Origin: Coriobacteriales bacterium
GTDB lineage: Bacteria; Actinomycetota; Coriobacteriia; Coriobacteriales; Atopobiaceae
Length of the DNA stretch: 64,000 nucleotides
Assembly (NCBI GenBank): GCA_029101205.1
Contig: JAQXQO010000134.1
Coordinates: 45,281-109,280 of the forward strand
Direction: 5' to 3'
The position numbers and the translations under genes are program-made. Shown one piece after another: positions 4,267 through 60,184 of this stretch (position 1 is the first letter of the stretch; every line of letters starts with the position of its first letter). The notes under the pieces were generated by a model. The model saw only the letters and a list, made by a program, of their open reading frames with translations, had not been told where the DNA came from and did not search any database.

Positions 4267-4418
4267 GGTGTTGGCCCTCCCCGCTCCCGATGGCTTCCTC
4301 GGAATGAAACCATTCTACCCAATACCCGAACATATGTTGCAGTCTAGGGGACCAAATGCGCTATAGTATCTGCCACCGTCCATCGGCCCGCAGAAGCCCC
4401 CACCCGAAGGAGCTCGCC

Positions 4419-4925
4419 ATGCAAGGCGCAACGCAAACCACCTACGACGTCGACTTTGCCCTTCTTGCCAGCCAGATTCAGTCGCTCGCGCAGCCCGACC
4501 CGCACTGGCTGCCCACGCTCAGCAATGCCGCGGCACTGCTGTGGGACGCGCTGCCCCAGGTGAACTGGGTCGGATTCTATCTGATGGCGCAAAGCGGCGA
4601 CCTCGTGCTGGGGCCCTTCCAGGGAAAGCTGGCCTGCGTGCGTCTGCGTCTGGGCCACGGCGTCTGCGGCACGGCGGCTCAGCTGGACCAGCCCCAGCTG
4701 GTGCCCAACGTCCACGAGTTCGCCGGCCACATCGCCTGCGACGCGGCCACGAACTCCGAGCTGGTAATACCGCTGCACCACCAGGGTAGGGTCATCGGCG
4801 TGCTGGACCTGGACAGCCCCCAGCCCGGACGGTTCCGCGACTCCGACCTGGACGGCCTTCGGCAGGTGGTGCGCCCCATCCAGGACAGCGCCGACTTCGT
4901 CGGCCTGCCGCTGTTGGGGGCATAG
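4419..4925 (+). CDS. msrC: GAF-domain protein, free methionine-R-sulfoxide reductase type
   Basis: NWVGFYL...LGPFQGKLAC...GVCGTAA...HIACDAATNSELVIP...GVLDLDS; RBS AAGGAG. Confidence 0.85.
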   Translation: MQGATQTTYDVDFALLASQIQSLAQPDPHWLPTLSNAAALLWDALPQVNWVGFYLMAQSGDLVLGPFQGKLACVRLRLGHGVCGTAAQLDQPQLVPNVHEFAGHIACDAATNSELVIPLHHQGRVIGVLDLDSPQPGRFRDSDLDGLRQVVRPIQDSADFVGLPLLGA

Positions 4926-5082
4926 CGGCCAGCCCAAGGCCGGCGCTTGGCAGCCACGGCCTGCGGGCCGCTAGTCCTTCTTGGCATGAAAAAGGCGCCC
5001 CGCCATACGACGGGACGCCAGAGTATCGATTGCGGGATGGCCCAAAGAAGCGCTGCCCACAGGGGGCAATCGCCGTCAGGGG

Positions 5083-7005
5083 CTAGCCCTGCTGGCAACA
5101 GCTGTCCACCCAGGCCAGCAGGTTCTCCTCGGCAGTGCCGCTGACCTCGGCCAGAACGTGGCCCTGCCCCCACACGGGCGTGAACGCGACGTCCTTCACG
5201 CCGTCGTAGTGCTGCAGCGCCAGCGCCAGGTTGGCCTCGGTGCACAGTGAGGTGTCCGTCTGGAAGATGCCGGAGTTGATGCGCCAGTGCGGTGCCACGC
5301 CGCAGGAGCCAAAGCCCTCATAGGCGCCGCTCAGCGTGTACAGCGGGTTGAACATGTTCATGCGCGTGGCGACGTCGGAGCTCTGGTCGTCGGTCTTCTG
5401 CAGGTCGTCGGTCCAGTCGGTGGCATAGGCCGCGTCCCAGCCACTGGCCGCCGAGTAGGCGTCCACGTTCGCCGTGATGCTGTCCGCAATCATCTGGCTG
5501 AAGTGCAGTGTCCCGTTGTCCTTCGTGCCGAACAGCTGGTTCGTGGTGGTGGAGCGGTCGATGGCGTCGAAGGCGCAGACCTTCTTTGAAGGGGCCTTCA
5601 GGTGCGTCACGAAGTCGCGCAGCCCGCTGATGCGGACGGTGTTGCGGCGCTGGTTGTAGGTGAGCCAGCGGTCGTCGCTGTTCAGGGCGCTGACGTAATC
5701 GGATGCCGAGTTGTACACAACGGACTGCACCTGCGTGGCGCCCGCCTCGCCATCGGTCGTGGCAGACGAGTTCGAGCTGCCCGTGACGCCCGTGGCGTTG
5801 GAGACCTTGTCGGAGGTCTCGTCGGTGACCGCGTCGGTGTCCTGCGTGCCCGAGCCGGACTTCTGCAGGTTGGGGTCGCCGGGGAACGCCGTGGTCGAGA
5901 TGCGCGACGGCGTGTACGTGTACGGGAACTGCGTGGTCGAGAAGAACTTCGCAGCCGCATCCTGCACCAGCGTGACCAGGTAGTCGTAGTAGCTGCCGTC
6001 GGTGTAGATCTCGCCCGAGGTCTCGTCCAGCGTCAGCGCGGCGTCGCTGGAGTCGCGCAGGTCCATGGAGTTGACGTAGGCGGCATAGGCCGTGGCGAGG
6101 TTGTTCGAGAGGAGCTTCGTCCACGTGCCGTCGGCGCGCGTGTCGGCGGTGTCGTACTGCCCCATCATCCACTCGTACGCGGAGTCCGCCGTGTCGTACT
6201 CGGTCAGGGGGCACCACGAGGCGGACCCAAAGATGGCGTCCGAGATGGTGTTACCCTGCGCGTCATGCGTCACGGCGCCGATGCTGTCGAGGTAGGACGT
6301 GTACAGCGCGGAGTCTCCGGTGGAGCCCATGAGCGCGCTGACGCCACCGCCCGCCGAGAAGCCAAACATGAAGACGCGGCTGGTGTCGCAGGGCAGGTCG
6401 GACGCGTTGTAGCGCAGGTAGCGCACGGCCGCCTTCAGGTCGACCACGGGCCAGGGGGCGCCGCCGGAGTACACCTGGTCCTTCGAGCTCTCGTAGCCCG
6501 AGCTGCGGCCGCGGAAGCCCGCGTACACGTAGACGTAGCCGGCCTTCATGTAGTTGGTAAGGCCGTTGGCGTCATACGAGGTGGGGCTGGCCTGGGCGCC
6601 CAGCGTGCCGGAGTTTATGGGCATCAGGATGGGAGCGGTCTTCGCGGTGTAGTTGCCCACCGCACCGTCCTCCTTCACCGTGCAGGTGTAGGTGTCGCCC
6701 TTCTTCTCGCCGTTGAAGTACGCACCGGGCACAAAAATGGCCAGCGACTCGTACGCAGTGGAGACCGGGCTCTTGCAATAGGTCAGCCCCAGCTGGTAGT
6801 ACACGTCGTTGACAGAGTCGTACTTCCAGGACTTCATGTCCAGGGCCAGGCTCTGGAACTCGGTCAGGTCGACGGAAGGCTGCTGGTCATTGCTGTCGGA
6901 GTCCTGCTGGGTGGTCTGCTGGGTGTTGGACGGCGTGCACGCCGCCAGGCAAAGCGCCGTCCCCGCGGACATGGCCGCTAGGAACTCTTTCCTGGTGCAG
7001 CTCAT
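5083..7005 (-). CDS. Subtype B tannase-like secreted esterase (Tat-like lipoprotein)
   Basis: Signal RKEFL...CLAAC; GFSAGG nucleophile elbow; VDLKAAVRYLRYN; HWRI-x-SGIFQTDTS; VWGQGH. Confidence 0.8.
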   Translation of the reverse strand: MSCTRKEFLAAMSAGTALCLAACTPSNTQQTTQQDSDSNDQQPSVDLTEFQSLALDMKSWKYDSVNDVYYQLGLTYCKSPVSTAYESLAIFVPGAYFNGEKKGDTYTCTVKEDGAVGNYTAKTAPILMPINSGTLGAQASPTSYDANGLTNYMKAGYVYVYAGFRGRSSGYESSKDQVYSGGAPWPVVDLKAAVRYLRYNASDLPCDTSRVFMFGFSAGGGVSALMGSTGDSALYTSYLDSIGAVTHDAQGNTISDAIFGSASWCPLTEYDTADSAYEWMMGQYDTADTRADGTWTKLLSNNLATAYAAYVNSMDLRDSSDAALTLDETSGEIYTDGSYYDYLVTLVQDAAAKFFSTTQFPYTYTPSRISTTAFPGDPNLQKSGSGTQDTDAVTDETSDKVSNATGVTGSSNSSATTDGEAGATQVQSVVYNSASDYVSALNSDDRWLTYNQRRNTVRISGLRDFVTHLKAPSKKVCAFDAIDRSTTTNQLFGTKDNGTLHFSQMIADSITANVDAYSAASGWDAAYATDWTDDLQKTDDQSSDVATRMNMFNPLYTLSGAYEGFGSCGVAPHWRINSGIFQTDTSLCTEANLALALQHYDGVKDVAFTPVWGQGHVLAEVSGTAEENLLAWVDSCCQQG

Positions 7006-15516: not shown

Positions 15517-16126
15517 CCGTACCCGGTGCTCCAGGCCAGATTGCCCCAAGCTCAGCCGTCCACTCCTTGGCATCCATCCTCACCACGCTTCTGTCGGCCC
15601 CTCCGTCCGGCGTCGATCGGACCACCACGACGTCGACCCAGCTGCCCCCGTCGATCACGCACCCCCACACGTTGCCCAGAAGGTCCAGGTAGCCCGAGCT
15701 GCGCAGCAGGCAGTCTCCACGCCGTTGGTAATCCTCCAGCGTCTGGCGCGCCTGCGACACCACGCCGTCCGTCCCTTCCGGCAGGTCGGCCGGCGTTTCC
15801 CGCCGTGACTGTTCTTCTCCTGTGGACTTCCCATCCGCAGCCTGCCCGGAAGGCCCCTCGCCGTCCGTCGACGAGCCGTCATCCACCGCTTCGCCTCGCG
15901 TATAGCCGTCAGGCGCCTTAGCGGCCTCCCACGGGGCAAGGCCCCCGCGAATCAACCAGGGGTCCAGCACCCATAGGCAGGCTCCGACGACCAAGGCACA
16001 CACAACCGCAGCCACAACACGCATAGGAGCGGCCCGCCTCCCACCCGGTCGCATCCGTCCCCTCGTCCTCCCGTCGCATCGCGGAGCTCCGCGCTCTTTG
16101 AACTCCCTGCGCCACCACATCCCCAT
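15509..16126 (-). CDS. Hypothetical membrane-anchored protein of the tad cluster
   Basis: One TM helix, then SGYLDLLGNVWGCV domain; overlaps the next gene. Confidence 0.65.
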   Translation of the reverse strand: MGMWWRREFKERGAPRCDGRTRGRMRPGGRRAAPMRVVAAVVCALVVGACLWVLDPWLIRGGLAPWEAAKAPDGYTRGEAVDDGSSTDGEGPSGQAADGKSTGEEQSRRETPADLPEGTDGVVSQARQTLEDYQRRGDCLLRSSGYLDLLGNVWGCVIDGGSWVDVVVVRSTPDGGADRSVVRMDAKEWTAELGAIWPGAPGTDG

Positions 16127-16147
16127 ACACGGTTCACCACCCCGGGG

Positions 16148-16369
16148 CTACAGCGAGTTGATGCCCTGTGCTATGGCATTCCACAGCTCCTGTACCTTTC
16201 CGCGAAACGCGACGATGGCCACGATGGCGATGACCACGAGGACGCCAACGAGGATGGCGTACTCGGTTGTGCCCTGCCCCGAGCGCTCCCTCAGCATCCG
16301 CGAGGTGGCAGCCAGGCCCTCCCGAAGCCCCAGCTCCCTTGTCCGTCCGGCTGCTTCCCTTGTGCACAT
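16148..16369 (-). CDS. flp: Flp family major pilin
   Basis: GQGTTEYAILVGVLVVIAIVAI...LWNAI; RBS AAGGAGG. Confidence 0.88.
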   Translation of the reverse strand: MCTREAAGRTRELGLREGLAATSRMLRERSGQGTTEYAILVGVLVVIAIVAIVAFRGKVQELWNAIAQGINSL

Positions 16370-16383
16370 GCCTACCTCCTTCG

Positions 16384-17079
16384 CTACGCCGCACCTCCCC
16401 CGCCCAGGGCGGGAGCCAGTAGCGGACCCAAAATGGCCAGAAGCATCGCGGGGACGATGAGCGTCCCCAACGGCACCAGCATCTTTACCGGGGCCTTCTC
16501 CATCTGCTCCTGCAGCTCGAAGCGCTGCTCCTCGCGAATGACCTCGGCCTGTCTCTGCAGCACGGAGGCCAGGGGCGTCCCGAAGCTCAGGGCCTCCGAC
16601 ACGCTGGCCGAGAAGCGCTCCAGGGCGGCCACGCCCATGCGTTCCGACATGTGCGCAAGCGCCTCCTGCCTGCCACAGGCTCCGATGCGCCACAGCACGA
16701 GCGCGTCGGCGAGCTCCTTCGCCAGGCCGTTGTGGTACCTCGAGCAGTAGAGGTCTATGGAGGCATCGAACGACAGCCCCGCAGAAAGTCCCAGGGTCAC
16801 GATGTCCAGGAAGTTCGGCAGCTCGCGCAGGACGTCATTTCTGCGCCGGGCAGCCGTCTGCCTTTGCTCCGCCCGCCGGACGAAGCCGTCCACACCCAGC
16901 GCAGCCCCCGCCCGAAGGATGGCCTGCCGAAAGGGGAGCGCCTGCGGCGCTCCGCCACGAACTCCGGGCCGCACGGTGCCAAGTCGGCGACCCGTTCCGC
17001 CATCGCCCATGGCCGCGAATGCGCCCAGAAACGCCACGGCCGCCACAGACACGACGCATGCGCATCCGTAGGCATCCAT
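16384..17079 (-). CDS. tadC: TadC-like (T2SS F) platform protein
   Basis: ELPNFLDIVTLGLSAGLSFD...EKAPVKMLVPLGTLIVPA. Confidence 0.85.
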   Translation of the reverse strand: MDAYGCACVVSVAAVAFLGAFAAMGDGGTGRRLGTVRPGVRGGAPQALPFRQAILRAGAALGVDGFVRRAEQRQTAARRRNDVLRELPNFLDIVTLGLSAGLSFDASIDLYCSRYHNGLAKELADALVLWRIGACGRQEALAHMSERMGVAALERFSASVSEALSFGTPLASVLQRQAEVIREEQRFELQEQMEKAPVKMLVPLGTLIVPAMLLAILGPLLAPALGGGGAA

Positions 17080-18014
17080 CACAGCACCTCCTTCATCAGC
17101 CGGCGCATGATCACGAGGGCCGCTCCGTCCATTGCCAAGGCCACCAGCAGGCACCCCATGCCCAAGGGGGTCGCCGCACCCTCCTGAAAGTCAGGGGATA
17201 TCAGCGACAGGATGCCCACCAGCGCCAATGGCAGCAGACAGACCACCCGGGCGGACAGCCTGACCTGCGCGGTCTTCACCACCAGCTCGCGCTCCATCTG
17301 ACGGTGGGACTCAACCAGGTTCGCCGAGCGTTGAAAGAGCTCCCTCAGCGGACTTCCCGTCCTCTGCGAGATGGAGAGCGCCGTCACCAGCAGCCCGACG
17401 CCCGGAGCGTCGAGCTCTCGGTCCAACTGGTCCAGAACCTCCGACACCCCCATGCCGCAGCGCAGCCGAAGCGACGCAACAAAGAACTCGTGGGCCGCCT
17501 CGCCCTTCTCGTGCGCGCCCACGTACGCGATTGCCTGCGTCAGCGTCTGACCCGACCCCAGCGCGGACGAGAGCGCGCGGAACACGCCCGGCATCTCCTC
17601 CGCAAGGGCACGAGACCGACGCAGCTCGCGCGACCAGCCCCAGCCCACAAGGGCGCCCGCGACCATGCAGCCGCTGGCAACGGCGCCCACGGGGCTGGCC
17701 GAGAAGAGCGCGCCGACCGCGGGCGCCAACGCGACGCAGTAAAGACCCAGCGCACTGGCCTCCTCGCGCTCGAGCGGAGCGTCCAGCCGTTCCGCCGTCG
17801 CGAGGGAAATCCCCTCGCAGGCGCTTCTCCAGTGAGCGTTACGCAGCAGCATGCCCGGAACGCCGGAGTCGACCAACGAGGCGAGCAGCCTCGAGCGCAG
17901 CGCGCGTTGAACACGGCGAGAACCTCCCGGCCTCGTTGCCCCTGCCATTCCGGTGGCCACAAAGGCCCCGGCCCACGTCAGCGCCCCGCAGCCTGCGAGC
18001 AGGACCGCATCCAT
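17079..18014 (-). CDS. tadB: TadB-like (T2SS F) platform protein
   Basis: MPGVFRALSSALGSGQTLTQA...TGSPL...TAQVRLSA. Confidence 0.85.
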   Translation of the reverse strand: MDAVLLAGCGALTWAGAFVATGMAGATRPGGSRRVQRALRSRLLASLVDSGVPGMLLRNAHWRSACEGISLATAERLDAPLEREEASALGLYCVALAPAVGALFSASPVGAVASGCMVAGALVGWGWSRELRRSRALAEEMPGVFRALSSALGSGQTLTQAIAYVGAHEKGEAAHEFFVASLRLRCGMGVSEVLDQLDRELDAPGVGLLVTALSISQRTGSPLRELFQRSANLVESHRQMERELVVKTAQVRLSARVVCLLPLALVGILSLISPDFQEGAATPLGMGCLLVALAMDGAALVIMRRLMKEVL

Positions 18015-49116: not shown

Positions 49117-50916
49117 ATGTCAGACTCAAACGATGCGCTGTGGTGGGCGCAGGCCGTGGTGTATCAGGTGTACCCGCGCTCGTTCAAGGACTCCACGGGC
49201 AGTGGCCTAGGCGACCTGGCCGGCGTGGCGTCAAAGATCGACTACCTGAGGCAGCTGGGCGTGGATGCGCTGTGGCTGAGCCCCTTCTATCCCAGCGAGC
49301 TGGCGGACGGCGGCTACGACGTAGCCGACTACCGCAACGTGGACCCCAGGCTAGGCACGATGGACGACTTTGACCACCTGGTGGACGTGGCGCACCAGGC
49401 AGGCATAAAGGTGCTGGTAGACATTGTGCCCAACCACACCTCGCACCTGCACCCCTGGTTCCAGGAGGCCCTGAAGGCAGGGCCGGGCTCTGCCGCGCGA
49501 GCGCGCTACATATTCCGCGACGGGCGCGGGCCCAACGGCGACCTGCCCCCCACTCGCTGGACCAGCCACTTTGGTGGCCCCGCGTGGACGCGCGTAGAGG
49601 ACGGCCAGTGGTACCTGCACCTCTTTACCTGGCAGCAGCCCGACCTGAACTGGCAGAACCCCGAGGTGCGCCAGGACTTCCTGAAGACGCTGCGCTTCTG
49701 GAGCGACCACGGCGCGGACGGCTTCCGCGTGGACGTGGCCCATGGCCTGGCGAAGGACCTGGACCGCGACGACCTGGACAGCTTTAGCGCCATCGAGATC
49801 AACCTGCCCGCCGACGGCTCGAACCCCCTGTACGACCGCGACGACGTGCACCAGATATACCGCGAGTGGCGCCAGGTTCTGAACGAGTACGACCCGCCAC
49901 GCTTCGCCGTGGCCGAGGCCTGGGTCAACCCCGAGCGCCAGTACCTGTATGCCAGCACCGACGAGCTGGGCCAGGTGTTCAACTTCGAGTTCGCCAAGAG
50001 CCTGTGGACGCGAGACGGCATGCACACCGCCATCAGCGAGGGGCTGGCCAGCGCCAGAAGGGCGCACTCCACCTCGACGTGGGTGCTGTCGAACCACGAC
50101 GTCGTACGCGTGGCCACGCGCTACGGGCTGCCCCAGGTGGATAGCCCCCGCTACCACCAGTTCAGCGTGGACTGGGTCACGCGAGACGGCCAGAGCTACA
50201 TCGAGAACCGCCAGCTGGGCCTGCGCCGTGCGAAGGCCGCCCTGCTGCTGGAGCTGGCGCTGCCCGGCTCCGCCTACGTCTACCAGGGAGAAGAGCTGGG
50301 ACTTCCCGAAGTGGCCACCCTGCCGTGGGACCGTCTGGAAGACCCGACCGCCTTCCACACCGAGGGTTCTGCCACGACTAAGGGCCGCGACGGCTGCCGC
50401 GTACCCCTGCCCTGGGACTCCACCGACGTTCCCACGGCGGCTCCGCAGGCGGACGACCCCGACGGCCAGTTTGGTGCCGGGGCGTCGTTTGGCTTCTCCC
50501 CCCGCACGAAGGCGGACGGCACGCCCGCCGAGGCACCGCACCTGCCGCAGCCCCTGTGGTTCCAGCAGTACTGCGTCGACGCGGAGGAGAAGGACCCCGG
50601 CTCCACGCTGAACTACTACCGACATGCGCTGGCCATCCGTCGCCAGCTGCGCCGCCAATGCGATAGCCTGGACCAGATGAACGACTTCGAGTGGCTGCCT
50701 ATGGACGCCGGGTCGGGCCAGCCCGATGGGGCGCAGGGCTACGAGGGCGGCGCCATCGCGTACAGGCGCGCCAACGGCTGGGCCTGCGTCGCAAACTTCG
50801 GCCGCCAGCCGGTAGAGCTGCCGAAGGGACAGCTGCTGCTGAGCTCGGCCGCGCTGGACGAGGACGGCCGCCTGCCCCAGGACTGCGCCGCCTGGGTGAT
50901 GCTGGACCAGCAGTAG
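49117..50916 (+). CDS. GH13 alpha-glucosidase
   Basis: YQVYPRSF, DIVPNHTS, DGFRVDVAHG, VAEAW, SNHD, GRDGCRVPLPW. Confidence 0.93.
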   Translation: MSDSNDALWWAQAVVYQVYPRSFKDSTGSGLGDLAGVASKIDYLRQLGVDALWLSPFYPSELADGGYDVADYRNVDPRLGTMDDFDHLVDVAHQAGIKVLVDIVPNHTSHLHPWFQEALKAGPGSAARARYIFRDGRGPNGDLPPTRWTSHFGGPAWTRVEDGQWYLHLFTWQQPDLNWQNPEVRQDFLKTLRFWSDHGADGFRVDVAHGLAKDLDRDDLDSFSAIEINLPADGSNPLYDRDDVHQIYREWRQVLNEYDPPRFAVAEAWVNPERQYLYASTDELGQVFNFEFAKSLWTRDGMHTAISEGLASARRAHSTSTWVLSNHDVVRVATRYGLPQVDSPRYHQFSVDWVTRDGQSYIENRQLGLRRAKAALLLELALPGSAYVYQGEELGLPEVATLPWDRLEDPTAFHTEGSATTKGRDGCRVPLPWDSTDVPTAAPQADDPDGQFGAGASFGFSPRTKADGTPAEAPHLPQPLWFQQYCVDAEEKDPGSTLNYYRHALAIRRQLRRQCDSLDQMNDFEWLPMDAGSGQPDGAQGYEGGAIAYRRANGWACVANFGRQPVELPKGQLLLSSAALDEDGRLPQDCAAWVMLDQQ

Positions 50917-51051
50917 GCCGGGGCAGCCGCGGGCGGCCGTTGCTGCGGCCCGGCACTGCCCGTCGCCAGGCCCGTCGCTACGGCCCTGCACCGCTGCCCG
51001 GCACCGCGGCCCGGCACCGCGGCCCGGCACGTCTGTCCCTACCATCCTCTG

Positions 51052-51107
51052 AGGGGCACAGTTTGCCTCGTTTTTCTCGCCTTGAATTCGAGGCAAACTG
51101 TGCCCCT
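51052..51107. repeat. Perfect 19-bp inverted repeat with 18-nt loop
   Basis: AGGGGCACAGTTTGCCTCG / CGAGGCAAACTGTGCCCCT. Confidence 0.9.
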
Positions 51108-51143: not shown

Positions 51144-51900
51144 ACCCCAATCGGCCCAACCGGCTACCCGGACCTGCCGGCTCTGCACCGATTGGTGCAA
51201 ACTAACCAGGTGTGAGCACCCGAACCCGCCGACTTTGCATTCAGCAATGTGAGCGCGAAGGCGGGCGGCCTTTCTACCAGGCCTTTTGCCAGAGGGGCAA
51301 TAATAGTCGGTGCAGACCAACCAGTTCTGGGTACCCAGACCCGCCGACTCTGCACCAGATAGTGCAGACCGACCAGGTTCGGGTACCCAGACCCCTGTAC
51401 TTTGCACCAGCTGGTGCACACTAACCAGCACATCAACCAATACACTAACCGGCACTGGGCACCCGAGCCCGTTTAGCCTGCGCCAATCGGTGCAGAGTCC
51501 GTAGGAGTGGGCGCCCACACCTGCCACCTTTGCAGGGATTTCTGCAGGGGTCGGACCCGTGGGCGCCCACACCTGCCACCTTTGCAGGAACCCGATTTGT
51601 CCCTCTCGCAAAACCCCAGGTCAGCGGCCTGCCTTCCCGAAATTGGAAATTCCTGAATGCAAAAGTCGGACCCGTGGGCGCACACACCTGCCACCTTTGT
51701 AGGGATTTCTGCGGAAGTCGGACCCATGGGCGCCCACACCTGTCATCTCTGCAGAAGCCGAGGCCCGCACATGGCATCGATTGGCCCGTCCGCAATCTCG
51801 ATTGGCCCACCCGCCTTCTCTACCTGCAGCTATGCCAGTAGGCCAAGCCCGGGTTCCGCGAACTCCCGACCCACGAGTGCCCGAAACCCCGATTCTCGTC
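51144..51900. repeat. Phased array of 44-bp symmetric units (locus 1)
   Basis: Units start at 51144 (partial), 51196, 51311, 51363, 51415 (partial), 51439, 51491, 51543, 51658, 51710 and 51857 (degenerate). Confidence 0.9.
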
Positions 51901-52145
51901 GAATGAGCTAGTGAAGGCCCTGCCAGCAGAGGCCCCACTAACAGATGCTCCGCCCGAAGATCCCACTAGCGAAGACCCCGGCAGCAGACGCCCCGCCCGA
52001 AGGCCCTGCCAGTGAATGCCCCGCCATCGAATCCCCACCATCGGCGACCCCACGCTCGAGCACCCGCAGCGGCCACGTTTGCGCAACGAGCGACTGCAAG
52101 GCTCGGCTCGACGCGACGCGGCGCGGCGCGGCATGCTCCACCCCG

Positions 52146-52958
52146 CTAGCAGACGAAGGGCCACTCCCCCGCCGCCAGCGCCTCGATGGCATCGGCCACG
52201 GCGTCGTCTTTGCACGCGCCGACGTGCCAGCGCGCGGCGGCCACCGCGTCGTCGGTCGCGTTGGCGACGGCGACCGAGTTGGGCACGTGGCGCAGCATGC
52301 TGAGGTCGTTGCCCGCATCGCCAAACACCACGACGTCGCCCAGCGTGCATCCGATTCGCTGGCACAGCAGGTCGATGCCCGTAGCCTTGTTGATTCCCGC
52401 GGGCATGATGTTCGAGAAGGTCGCCAGGGCCACGTCGAAGTCGAGCGCCTCCACCTCGCGATTCAGCCGGTCGACCAGCGACGTCGTCGCCTGCAGACCC
52501 TGCGACTGGAACACGTTCGCCTTGCCAACCACCATGTCGGGCACCCCGTCGGACTCCACGCAAGACTCCGCATAGCGTGGGAACGCCACCTGCAGGTCGG
52601 CCTTCTGTCCCTGCGCCAGGTACGGCCGACCTCCGACGAAGCACAAAAGCCCAGCTCCCGGCACGTCTTTCACGATGTTGGCCACCTGCGTCAGCGCGTC
52701 GTGGTCCAAGGTGGCCTGGCGAATCATCTGCCCGTCCAGGCGCACCTGCAAGCCGTTCGTCGCAACGGCGGTCCTGAAGCAGTCCTGGTCGTGGGCGAAT
52801 ATCGGGTCGACCCAGTCGATGCCACGGCCGCTGCACGGCCCCACGTGGATGCCCGCATCCAGCGCGTCGTGAAACGCCTGGCGCGTGCGCGCGTCCACCT
52901 CGTCGTTGCCATGCGGCATGATCGTGCCGTCGATGTCGCTCAAGATTAGCTTGACCAC
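52146..52958 (-). CDS. Cof-type HAD-IIB phosphatase
   Basis: LILSDIDGTI, CSGR, NKATGI, FGDAGNDLSML. Confidence 0.9.
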   Translation of the reverse strand: MVKLILSDIDGTIMPHGNDEVDARTRQAFHDALDAGIHVGPCSGRGIDWVDPIFAHDQDCFRTAVATNGLQVRLDGQMIRQATLDHDALTQVANIVKDVPGAGLLCFVGGRPYLAQGQKADLQVAFPRYAESCVESDGVPDMVVGKANVFQSQGLQATTSLVDRLNREVEALDFDVALATFSNIMPAGINKATGIDLLCQRIGCTLGDVVVFGDAGNDLSMLRHVPNSVAVANATDDAVAAARWHVGACKDDAVADAIEALAAGEWPFVC

Positions 52959-59680: not shown

Positions 59681-60184
59681 ACCCGCCATCGGCTACCCGC
59701 GCGCCCAGACCCGTTGACTTTGCACTGGCTTCGCGCTCGGAGGTGCAGACAGCCCTGGTGTGGGCGCCCACGGCAGCCGCTTCTGCAGAAATCCTGACGA
59801 GGGTCCCAGGTGTGAGTGCCCAGAACCGGCACTCGGCCACGCGGCTCAAGCCAGGGATCCTAGCTCCGCGCAAACCTGTCGGGTGTGGGTACCCGCAACG
59901 ACCAGGTTTGCGCACGGAGCCAAAGGTCACAACGACCACCTCGGCGCACTAGGCCTCTGACCTGCGGTTTTCCTGGAGCGCCCCGACCCGGCATTTGCCG
60001 CATGCGCAAACCTGTCGGGTGTGGGTACCCGCAGCGGCCATGTTTGCACACGGGTCTCCCCTTTGCGGCGGAGCTTCATCGTCGCCAGTCCCCTGACCAG
60101 GGCTTTTTCACGCGAGTCCCGAGCACGCCTCCCGTGCCTGCGCAAACCCGTCGGGCGCGGGTACCCGCAACGACCATCTTTGCG
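59681..60184. repeat. Phased array of 44-bp symmetric units (locus 2)
   Basis: Units start at 59681 (partial), 59744, 59796 (degenerate), 59869, 60005 and 60141. Confidence 0.9.

Follow-up and report, generated by a model that had tools for sequence, protein, structure and literature searches.

What kind of element is the array of 44-bp symmetric units at positions 51144-51900 of a 64,000-nucleotide stretch of Coriobacteriales DNA (the window; contig JAQXQO010000134.1 of assembly GCA_029101205.1, family Atopobiaceae), and what spreads it? A preliminary description of this DNA saw in the array either a phased protein-binding scaffold, loosely analogous to the bacterial interspersed mosaic elements (BIMEs) of E. 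coli, or a non-autonomous mobile element. Here we find that its repeats are dispersed through the genome in four subtypes, each of which flanks a predicted nuclease gene of its own. We take the array to be a probable selfish element of non-autonomous type, spread by such nucleases, which are predicted to combine an AbiEi-like domain with a Vsr fold and are encoded elsewhere in the genome. The earlier interpretation stands as regards phasing, the host-factor linker and the analogies; what it missed is the partner enzyme.

To describe the family, we scanned the genome holding the window (G000; 2.10 Mb, 64.6% GC, 84% complete) with a unit matrix trained on 196 seed units (cut-off 10 bits), which recovered 242 units in 54 arrays, as against 1 match in the block-shuffled genome. 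Seven units of the window array score 41-51 bits and bear out the proposed geometry TGCARA-N12-GGGYRCCC-N12-TYTGCA; they start at 51196, 51311, 51363, 51491, 51543, 51658 and 51710. Eleven units had been counted, and the other four are partial: a half-unit at 51144, a 24-bp partial duplication at 51415 (recovered here as repeat D11), and degenerate units at 51439 and 51857 with scores of -4 and 2 bits. Spacings of 52 and 115 bp are exact. The reported 147-bp spacing is present, not as a class of its own but as a decayed 126-class linker carrying a 21-bp duplication (repeat D8); it holds a previously overlooked third copy of the linker motif (51819-51835), and the next unit begins exactly 21 bp later. 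The two 71-nt linkers are inverted homologs, as described, with 38/71 positions identical and the motif at equal offset. The two supposedly unrelated subtypes are indeed distinct, but they are A and B of four cognate subfamilies, the window array being an A block and a B block fused through a hybrid unit at 51491. Contigs from four public runs tile the region, none covering its full length, which argues against an assembly artefact. The array is matched by no Rfam family, the sole Rfam match in the window being a tRNA. A coding repeat was ruled out, as none of the periods 52, 115 and 116 can be divided by 3 and a crude gene caller placed no gene over the 54 arrays; a CRISPR array was likewise ruled out, since the units vary and the linkers are homologous.

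Spacing follows whole turns of the helix. Among the 188 unit spacings in G000, 108 measure 52 bp, 45 measure 115/116 bp, 9 measure 125/126 bp and 14 measure 135/136 bp, these four classes taking in 176 of the total. All spacings tested together at a period of 10.45 bp give R 0.94 with a mean phase of -0.03 bp. Because copies inside a class are related, the fairer test is that of the four classes, whose whole-turn fit was equalled by 1 of 5,000 random four-class sets, and on this test the helical phasing first suggested for the window is upheld across the genome. Every long linker contains one asymmetric motif, and in 67 of 69 long linkers its position is quantised, with 33-35 or 43-44 bp between it and the preceding unit and 20-21 or 31 bp between it and the following one. 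All four combinations of these offsets are found, so that either side of the motif varies by one helical turn. The same spacing classes occur in the sister-species genome G075 (97% complete; 162 units in 33 arrays within the 945 kb scanned of about 2.4 Mb). The exact pattern is restricted to 3 of 121 genomes of the family, namely G000 (99 matches), G075 (122) and one isolated match elsewhere; a two-unit pattern in a species-wide collection, from which G000 itself may be absent, yielded 25 stretches in a single assembly. The arrays are intergenic. The window array does sit between convergent genes, for an alpha-amylase-family glucosidase and a HAD hydrolase, but a strong preference for such sites across the genome is not supported: the called neighbors of 36 arrays are convergent in 10 cases, co-directional in 20 and divergent in 6 (p about 0.02 for convergence relative to gaps over 300 bp).

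The called genes adjoining arrays belong to no common gene family, and neither of the two tyrosine recombinases of G000 lies beside an array. The partner genes had been overlooked by the crude gene caller and were recovered by inspection of the gaps between arrays, where paralogous open reading frames (ORFs) of about 390-500 aa fill two 2-kb gaps between paired arrays, with one further site beside an array. A search for copies flanking a nuclease gene had been suggested, and each subtype does flank its own: 1) subtype A (116-bp linker) flanks the gene on contig C66 of G000 (15860-17095); 2) subtype B (115-bp linker) those on C140 of G000 (4367-5728) and C73 of G075; 3) subtype C (136-bp linker) that on C42 of G000; and 4) subtype D (126-bp linker, longer center) that on C51 of G075. 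In a quick 17-row tree the genes of subtypes A-D cluster together (Shimodaira-Hasegawa approximate likelihood ratio test, SH-aLRT, 85). The more distant C83/C28 paralog carries an unrelated repeat upstream, with the palindrome GTGTTCGAACAC and spacings of 71-73 and 145 bp, about 7 and 14 turns; its clusters in G000 are confined to contig C83. Repeats occur both downstream and upstream of nuclease genes, and mostly far away from them.

The fold of the partner protein was predicted with an AlphaFold model (predicted confidence, pLDDT, 92). Residues 205-319 match the homing endonuclease I-Bth0305I (Z 10.5, root-mean-square deviation (rmsd) 2.3, 94 aligned), Vsr (Z 8.7, rmsd 2.3, 95 aligned) and the DUF559-type protein 3HRL (Z 9.8), while residues 1-201 match AbiEi's C-terminal domain at a middling Z of 6.9 (rmsd 3.7, 120 aligned). 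This match spans AbiEi residues 67-195 only, with the DNA-binding winged helix-turn-helix (wHTH) domain outside it. The partner is predicted to be a protein of about 400 aa consisting of an AbiEi C-terminal-like domain and a Vsr/I-Bth0305I-like nuclease with an intact active site. Across 124 homologs E209, D254 and H272 never vary and E265 and D278 hardly do, the catalytic residues are kept in all 7 of the G000 and G075 paralogs checked, and dN/dS values of 0.09 and 0.06 in two ortholog pairs show purifying selection. A profile match to 3R3P was obtained (E 3e-4), and MTES_1575 and DUF559 match 66 and 37 of the 124 members, respectively (E up to 0.05). Taken singly, the G000 proteins gave nothing useful in Pfam and NCBIfam, and no Foldseek match reached E 0.001, the top rows, all of them weak, being AbiEi, 3R3P and 3HRL. 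The MTES_1575 domain is described in giant HEPN proteins by its source paper (PMC3710099).

The wider family is large. A word-indexed homolog search found 5 proteins only, whereas the family profile retrieved 4,107 clusters at 50% identity and matched 27 of the 61 genomes examined from the class, with up to 12 copies per genome. The two flanks share at least five 11-mers at 15 of the 54 nuclease loci of sufficient length for the test (five of the 15 being G000/G075 cassettes) versus 7 of 424 mismatched pairs, and a stricter inverted-repeat test was positive at 6 of 59 loci versus 0 of 582 controls. At three loci picked for clear repeats the flanking repeat is dispersed and genome-specific, with 50, 17 and 63 matches in G026, G030 and G055 and, for each of the three, 0 in the remaining four genomes. 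A frequent module layout in the wider family is inverted repeat, motif, inverted repeat. A divergent acidic paralog group, judged by eye, lacks both the YH..D catalytic motif and flanking repeats, and is possibly an inactive, domesticated branch.

The linker had been proposed to hold a site for a host factor, and its phased offsets, together with enrichment of the motif across Actinomycetota and upstream of genes for actinobacterial integration host factor (aIHF), support this suggestion. We take the motif to be loosely like the E. coli integration host factor (IHF) consensus. Of 151 Actinomycetota genomes 133 contain it, most of them at counts well over a reversed control; this tally and that of aIHF presence take in four unpublished genomes (G179, G223, G260 and G290). 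The motif stands in the 500 bp upstream for 17 of 59 nuclease genes and for 15 of 41 aIHF genes, including that of G000 (C86:17845-18138), where it lies at -117. When four genomes chosen after the match was seen are left out, aIHF genes with the motif number 11 of 37, and control genes 91 of 759 (p 0.004, in a test where kin are not independent and all control genes come from G000). This placement hints at autoregulation and at a sequence-specific aIHF site. Five genomes without aIHF have 12 motif matches against 11 in the control, and the HU/IHF family PF00216 was not found in G000 (84% complete). The leading candidate binder of the linker motif, although unproven, is aIHF.

Arrays and cassettes have been gained or lost between G000 and G075. 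Few loci could be mapped by both flanks; among these, the two genomes have five arrays in common, often differing in unit number, and seven were flagged as empty. Alignment of five of the flagged loci left two clearly empty in G000, providing empty orthologous sites of the kind the preliminary description had proposed to look for; one holds subtype-D units missed by the matrix, and two are ambiguous. The C cassette is whole in G000 and survives in G075 only as a solo half-unit, while the D gene, present in G075, is gone at the G000 site, where D units persist. At the A cassette (G000 contig C66, near 15028) G075 carries a short A array together with oppB-oppA-like genes, and the stretch of about 3.5 kb with these genes is missing from G000 exactly at the nuclease cassette, a junction bridged by contigs from four runs. 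One strain shows an in-register deletion of 220 bp (52+52+116). For the window locus there is no syntenic empty site: the array of G075 is built differently there, and G027, G055 and G106 have no match to the left gene.

The units themselves offer some clues to mechanism. Self-complementarity of the arms ranges from 0.23 to 0.65 versus 0.30 to 0.64 for randomly paired units, a clear excess being seen at the central pair and at position 1 alone. Arms that are no more self-complementary than random pairs fit dyad binding on double-stranded DNA, in line with the protein-binding dyad envisaged earlier; the fold z-score of -11 for the whole array is a consequence of its inverted repeats. The central dinucleotide is self-complementary in 93% of units versus 52% by random pairing, and in B arrays it is CG in 75, TA in 22, and TG or CA in 6. 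Internal switches from A to B or D fall inside a unit in 10 cases, across an 8-nt linker in 0 and across a long linker in 1. Half-units stand at 46 of 157 array ends, and 44 of the 46 retain the central YR, after which similarity drops. From these patterns we infer cutting at the center. I-Bth0305I, as excerpts of its characterization describe it, is a homodimer with a footprint of about 60 bp that cuts a pseudopalindrome centrally to leave 2-base 5' overhangs (PMC3239194), which fits a 44-bp dyad with center junctions.

We lean, somewhat beyond an even chance, toward reading the arrays as a selfish family resembling BIMEs and REPtrons and moved by double-strand cutting within an IHF-phased complex. 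Two nuclease subunits would bind both arms of the 44-bp dyad on double-stranded DNA and, like the homologous I-Bth0305I, would cut the central YR to give a self-complementary 2-nt end. The linker motif would be bound by aIHF, which would bend the DNA and bring the flanking units together on one helical face; a need for units to share one face would explain why linker lengths change by whole turns only. Joining or repair would then attach cut units to others and to new intergenic sites, producing mosaic arrays in register, and ordinary recombination could later alter copy number. By analogy, the nuclease likely spreads these repeats as the REP-associated tyrosine transposase (RAYT) is thought to spread repetitive extragenic palindromic (REP) sequences, with unrelated chemistry.

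Several observations weigh against this reading. With respect to the gene-repeat pairing, the repeat-less gene on C41 of G075 is sister to the A-D group in the quick tree; A and C units occur in G075 and D units in G000, where the cognate gene was not found (assemblies 97% and 84% complete); and most nuclease loci have no flanking repeats common to both sides, only 15 of 54 having them. As to mobility, the two empty sites have imprecise ends and no clean target duplication, in flanks 80-98% identical between the species, and the missing arrays could be losses instead of gains. The case for central cutting is tempered in four respects: 1) two founder units from which the rest descend could account for the TA/CG covariation; 2) subtype C blocks join instead across the 8-nt linker (13 cases); 3) about 18 of the 46 terminal halves belong to the longer-centered subtype D, and full units are excluded from this class by construction; and 4) microhomology recombination would yield identical center junctions, because GGGYRCCC is the most widely common stretch. 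Whole-turn spacing, found in G000, is not universal in the wider family, the units of G055 lying 80 bp apart, which is not a whole number of turns. Finally, all 9 genomes of family f19 have aIHF and 0 of 9 the exact motif, and passages on chromatin immunoprecipitation (ChIP) of mIHF in M. tuberculosis report no common motif (PMC6155035).

Comparison with known systems places the arrays beside BIMEs and REPtrons without making them members. The likenesses are substantial: symmetric units form dispersed, species-specific mosaics between genes and lie on both sides of a cognate enzyme gene, and each enzyme paralog has its own repeat subtype. The BIME and non-autonomous-element analogies are apt. 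According to parts of the relevant accounts, the L linker of BIME-1 carries an IHF site and BIMEs are mosaics that include tandem units with short linkers (PMC3333891), while in REPtrons each enzyme paralog adjoins its own repeat group and repeats insert beside existing ones (PMC3116915). Here, by analogy with BIME-1, the long conserved linker holds a candidate site for a host bending protein. The array family works in a similar manner but differs in enzyme, tag and hairpin. The partner is a predicted Vsr-fold nuclease where theirs is an HUH Y1 transposase, a domain (PF01797) found in 0 of 2 genomes (G000, G075) with the control positive in 6 of 14; the GTAG/CGTC tag at the foot of the palindrome is absent but for one CGTC (GTAG 0, CGTC 1 of 484 unit ends); the arms do not form hairpins past the family consensus; and spacing is quantised in helical turns on either side of the motif. 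With the EDxHD enzymes (I-Bth0305I, Vsr, DUF559, MTES_1575) the partner shares, according to the model, a catalytic fold with conserved E, D, H and D. It differs from homing endonucleases in that its genes are free-standing between arrays, in neither intron nor intein, in that its DNA-binding region is AbiEi-like rather than NUMOD, and in that the gene has its putative sites on its flanks and does not sit within one. The predicted fold of the C-terminal domain of type IV antitoxins (AbiEi, Rv2827c) recurs in the partner, fused here to a nuclease and accompanied by dozens of dispersed sites; unlike in AbiE, each cassette has a single long ORF with no AbiEii-sized partner, and the match is without the wHTH. 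A MITE (miniature inverted-repeat transposable element) derived from an insertion sequence (IS) with an autonomous DDE transposase was set aside, as the paired-array genes encode a Vsr-fold protein; no genome-wide DDE search was made.

Three other explanations were considered. The arrays could be a scaffold maintained by the host, with the AbiEi-domain protein binding them, along with aIHF, as an autoregulator or chromosome organizer, and host recombination, not cutting, spreading the repeats. Strict phasing, purifying selection on the nuclease genes, retention of five array loci across sister species and the in-register deletion would all suit such a role, as would AbiEi itself, which in passages of PMC7319586 is an autoregulator that bends DNA and has a pair of 23-bp inverted repeats as its binding site, with a contribution from its C-terminal domain. 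We nevertheless judge this unlikely, given an invariant nuclease site, repeats on both sides of the genes and mostly distant from them, and a distribution over two species among 121 family genomes (plus the isolated match) and one further assembly, which fits a core host role poorly. Quite improbable, in our view, is an AbiE-derived addiction or anti-phage system with the repeats as protective or decoy sites: the AbiEi-like N-terminal fold, the up to 12 divergent paralogs per genome and cassette gain and loss between species speak for it, but no second toxin-size ORF lies between arrays (ORFs of at least 200-300 aa were examined), the wHTH falls outside the structural match, and lost cassettes leave solo repeats behind. 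Least probable of all is a conventional REP or MITE family mobilized by a RAYT or IS transposase absent from the incomplete G000 assembly, with the nuclease genes as passengers. Terminal halves that end at TA or CG are reminiscent of IS630-type MITE targets, but this likeness and the mosaic layout resembling BIME-1/BIME-2 (described in part in PMC3333891) are offset by the missing Y1 domain, also in the more complete G075, by the near absence of tags, by arms without extra self-complementarity and by a one-to-one subtype-gene pairing that passengers would not be expected to show.

Coordinates of the array and its surroundings in the window are collected below.

Table 1. Features of the array at 51144-51900, of a second array in the window and of the neighboring genes.
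Feature	Position	Strand	Remarks
Left terminal half-unit, subtype A	51162..51187		Similarity ends just outside central TA (51165-51166)
44-bp dyad unit, subtype A	51196..51239		Matrix scan, subtype assignment
71-nt linker 1	51240..51310	+	Motif 51273-51289 (candidate aIHF site), 33 bp after 5' unit, 21 bp before 3' unit
Two subtype-A units 52 bp apart	51311..51406		51311-51354 and 51363-51406
24-bp partial duplication and degenerate A unit	51415..51482		51415-51438 and 51439-51482
Hybrid unit	51491..51534		Left half A, right half B; block junction at central palindrome
44-bp dyad unit, subtype B	51543..51586		Matrix scan, subtype assignment
71-nt linker 2	51587..51657	-	Inverted relative to linker 1; motif 51608-51624
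Two subtype-B units 52 bp apart	51658..51753		51658-51701 and 51710-51753
Degenerate 126-class linker with 21-bp duplication	51754..51856	+	Degenerate motif 51819-51835
Degenerate terminal unit	51857..51900		1.9 bits
Second array of same family, mostly subtype C	59681..60184		136-bp spacing; flanked by convergent genes
Left neighbor, alpha-amylase-family glucosidase	49117..50916	+	Context only, outside element
Right neighbor, HAD hydrolase	52146..52955	-	Context only, outside element

Other repeats adjoin the array. Immediately to its left, at 51052-51107, lies a perfect 19-bp inverted repeat of a second dispersed family (GGCACAG...CTGTGCC), also present at the orthologous site of G075; G000 has 12 copies of this family, of which 10 measure exactly 48 nt and 4 have an array no more than 350 bp away. 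Between the array and each flanking gene there are short, degenerate tandem repeats rich in GC (50935-51042 and 51908-52037), with 13-bp and 5-bp indels in other strains.

In the literature covered we found no description of the repeat, the pairing or the motif, the supplements (tables of PMC3733652, PMC3372372 and PMC12306157) and subscription journals being outside its scope; the main text of PMC3733652 contains 0 occurrences of Coriobacter or Actinobacteria. What distinguishes the present family is whole-turn quantisation on two sides of a motif, four cognate pairs, center junctions and the lead to aIHF. Tentatively, and with more doubt than confidence, these arrays may represent a class of selfish DNA distinct from REP-RAYT systems and IS-derived MITEs, in which a nuclease of homing-endonuclease type, joined to a DNA-binding domain derived from AbiEi, moves its own gene and thousands of short modules across the Coriobacteriia through cuts at dyad centers within an aIHF-phased complex. 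Candidate substrates can now be assigned to a large unannotated protein family, and two sister genomes offer four natural enzyme-site pairs. The linker motif is a candidate aIHF binding motif where the M. tuberculosis ChIP study, in the passages cited above, gave none; if this is true, YKACCWGSNNTTTT would be the hitherto missing sequence-specific site of aIHF throughout the phylum. If cutting and mobility hold, REP-like repeats would have arisen with a second, unrelated chemistry.
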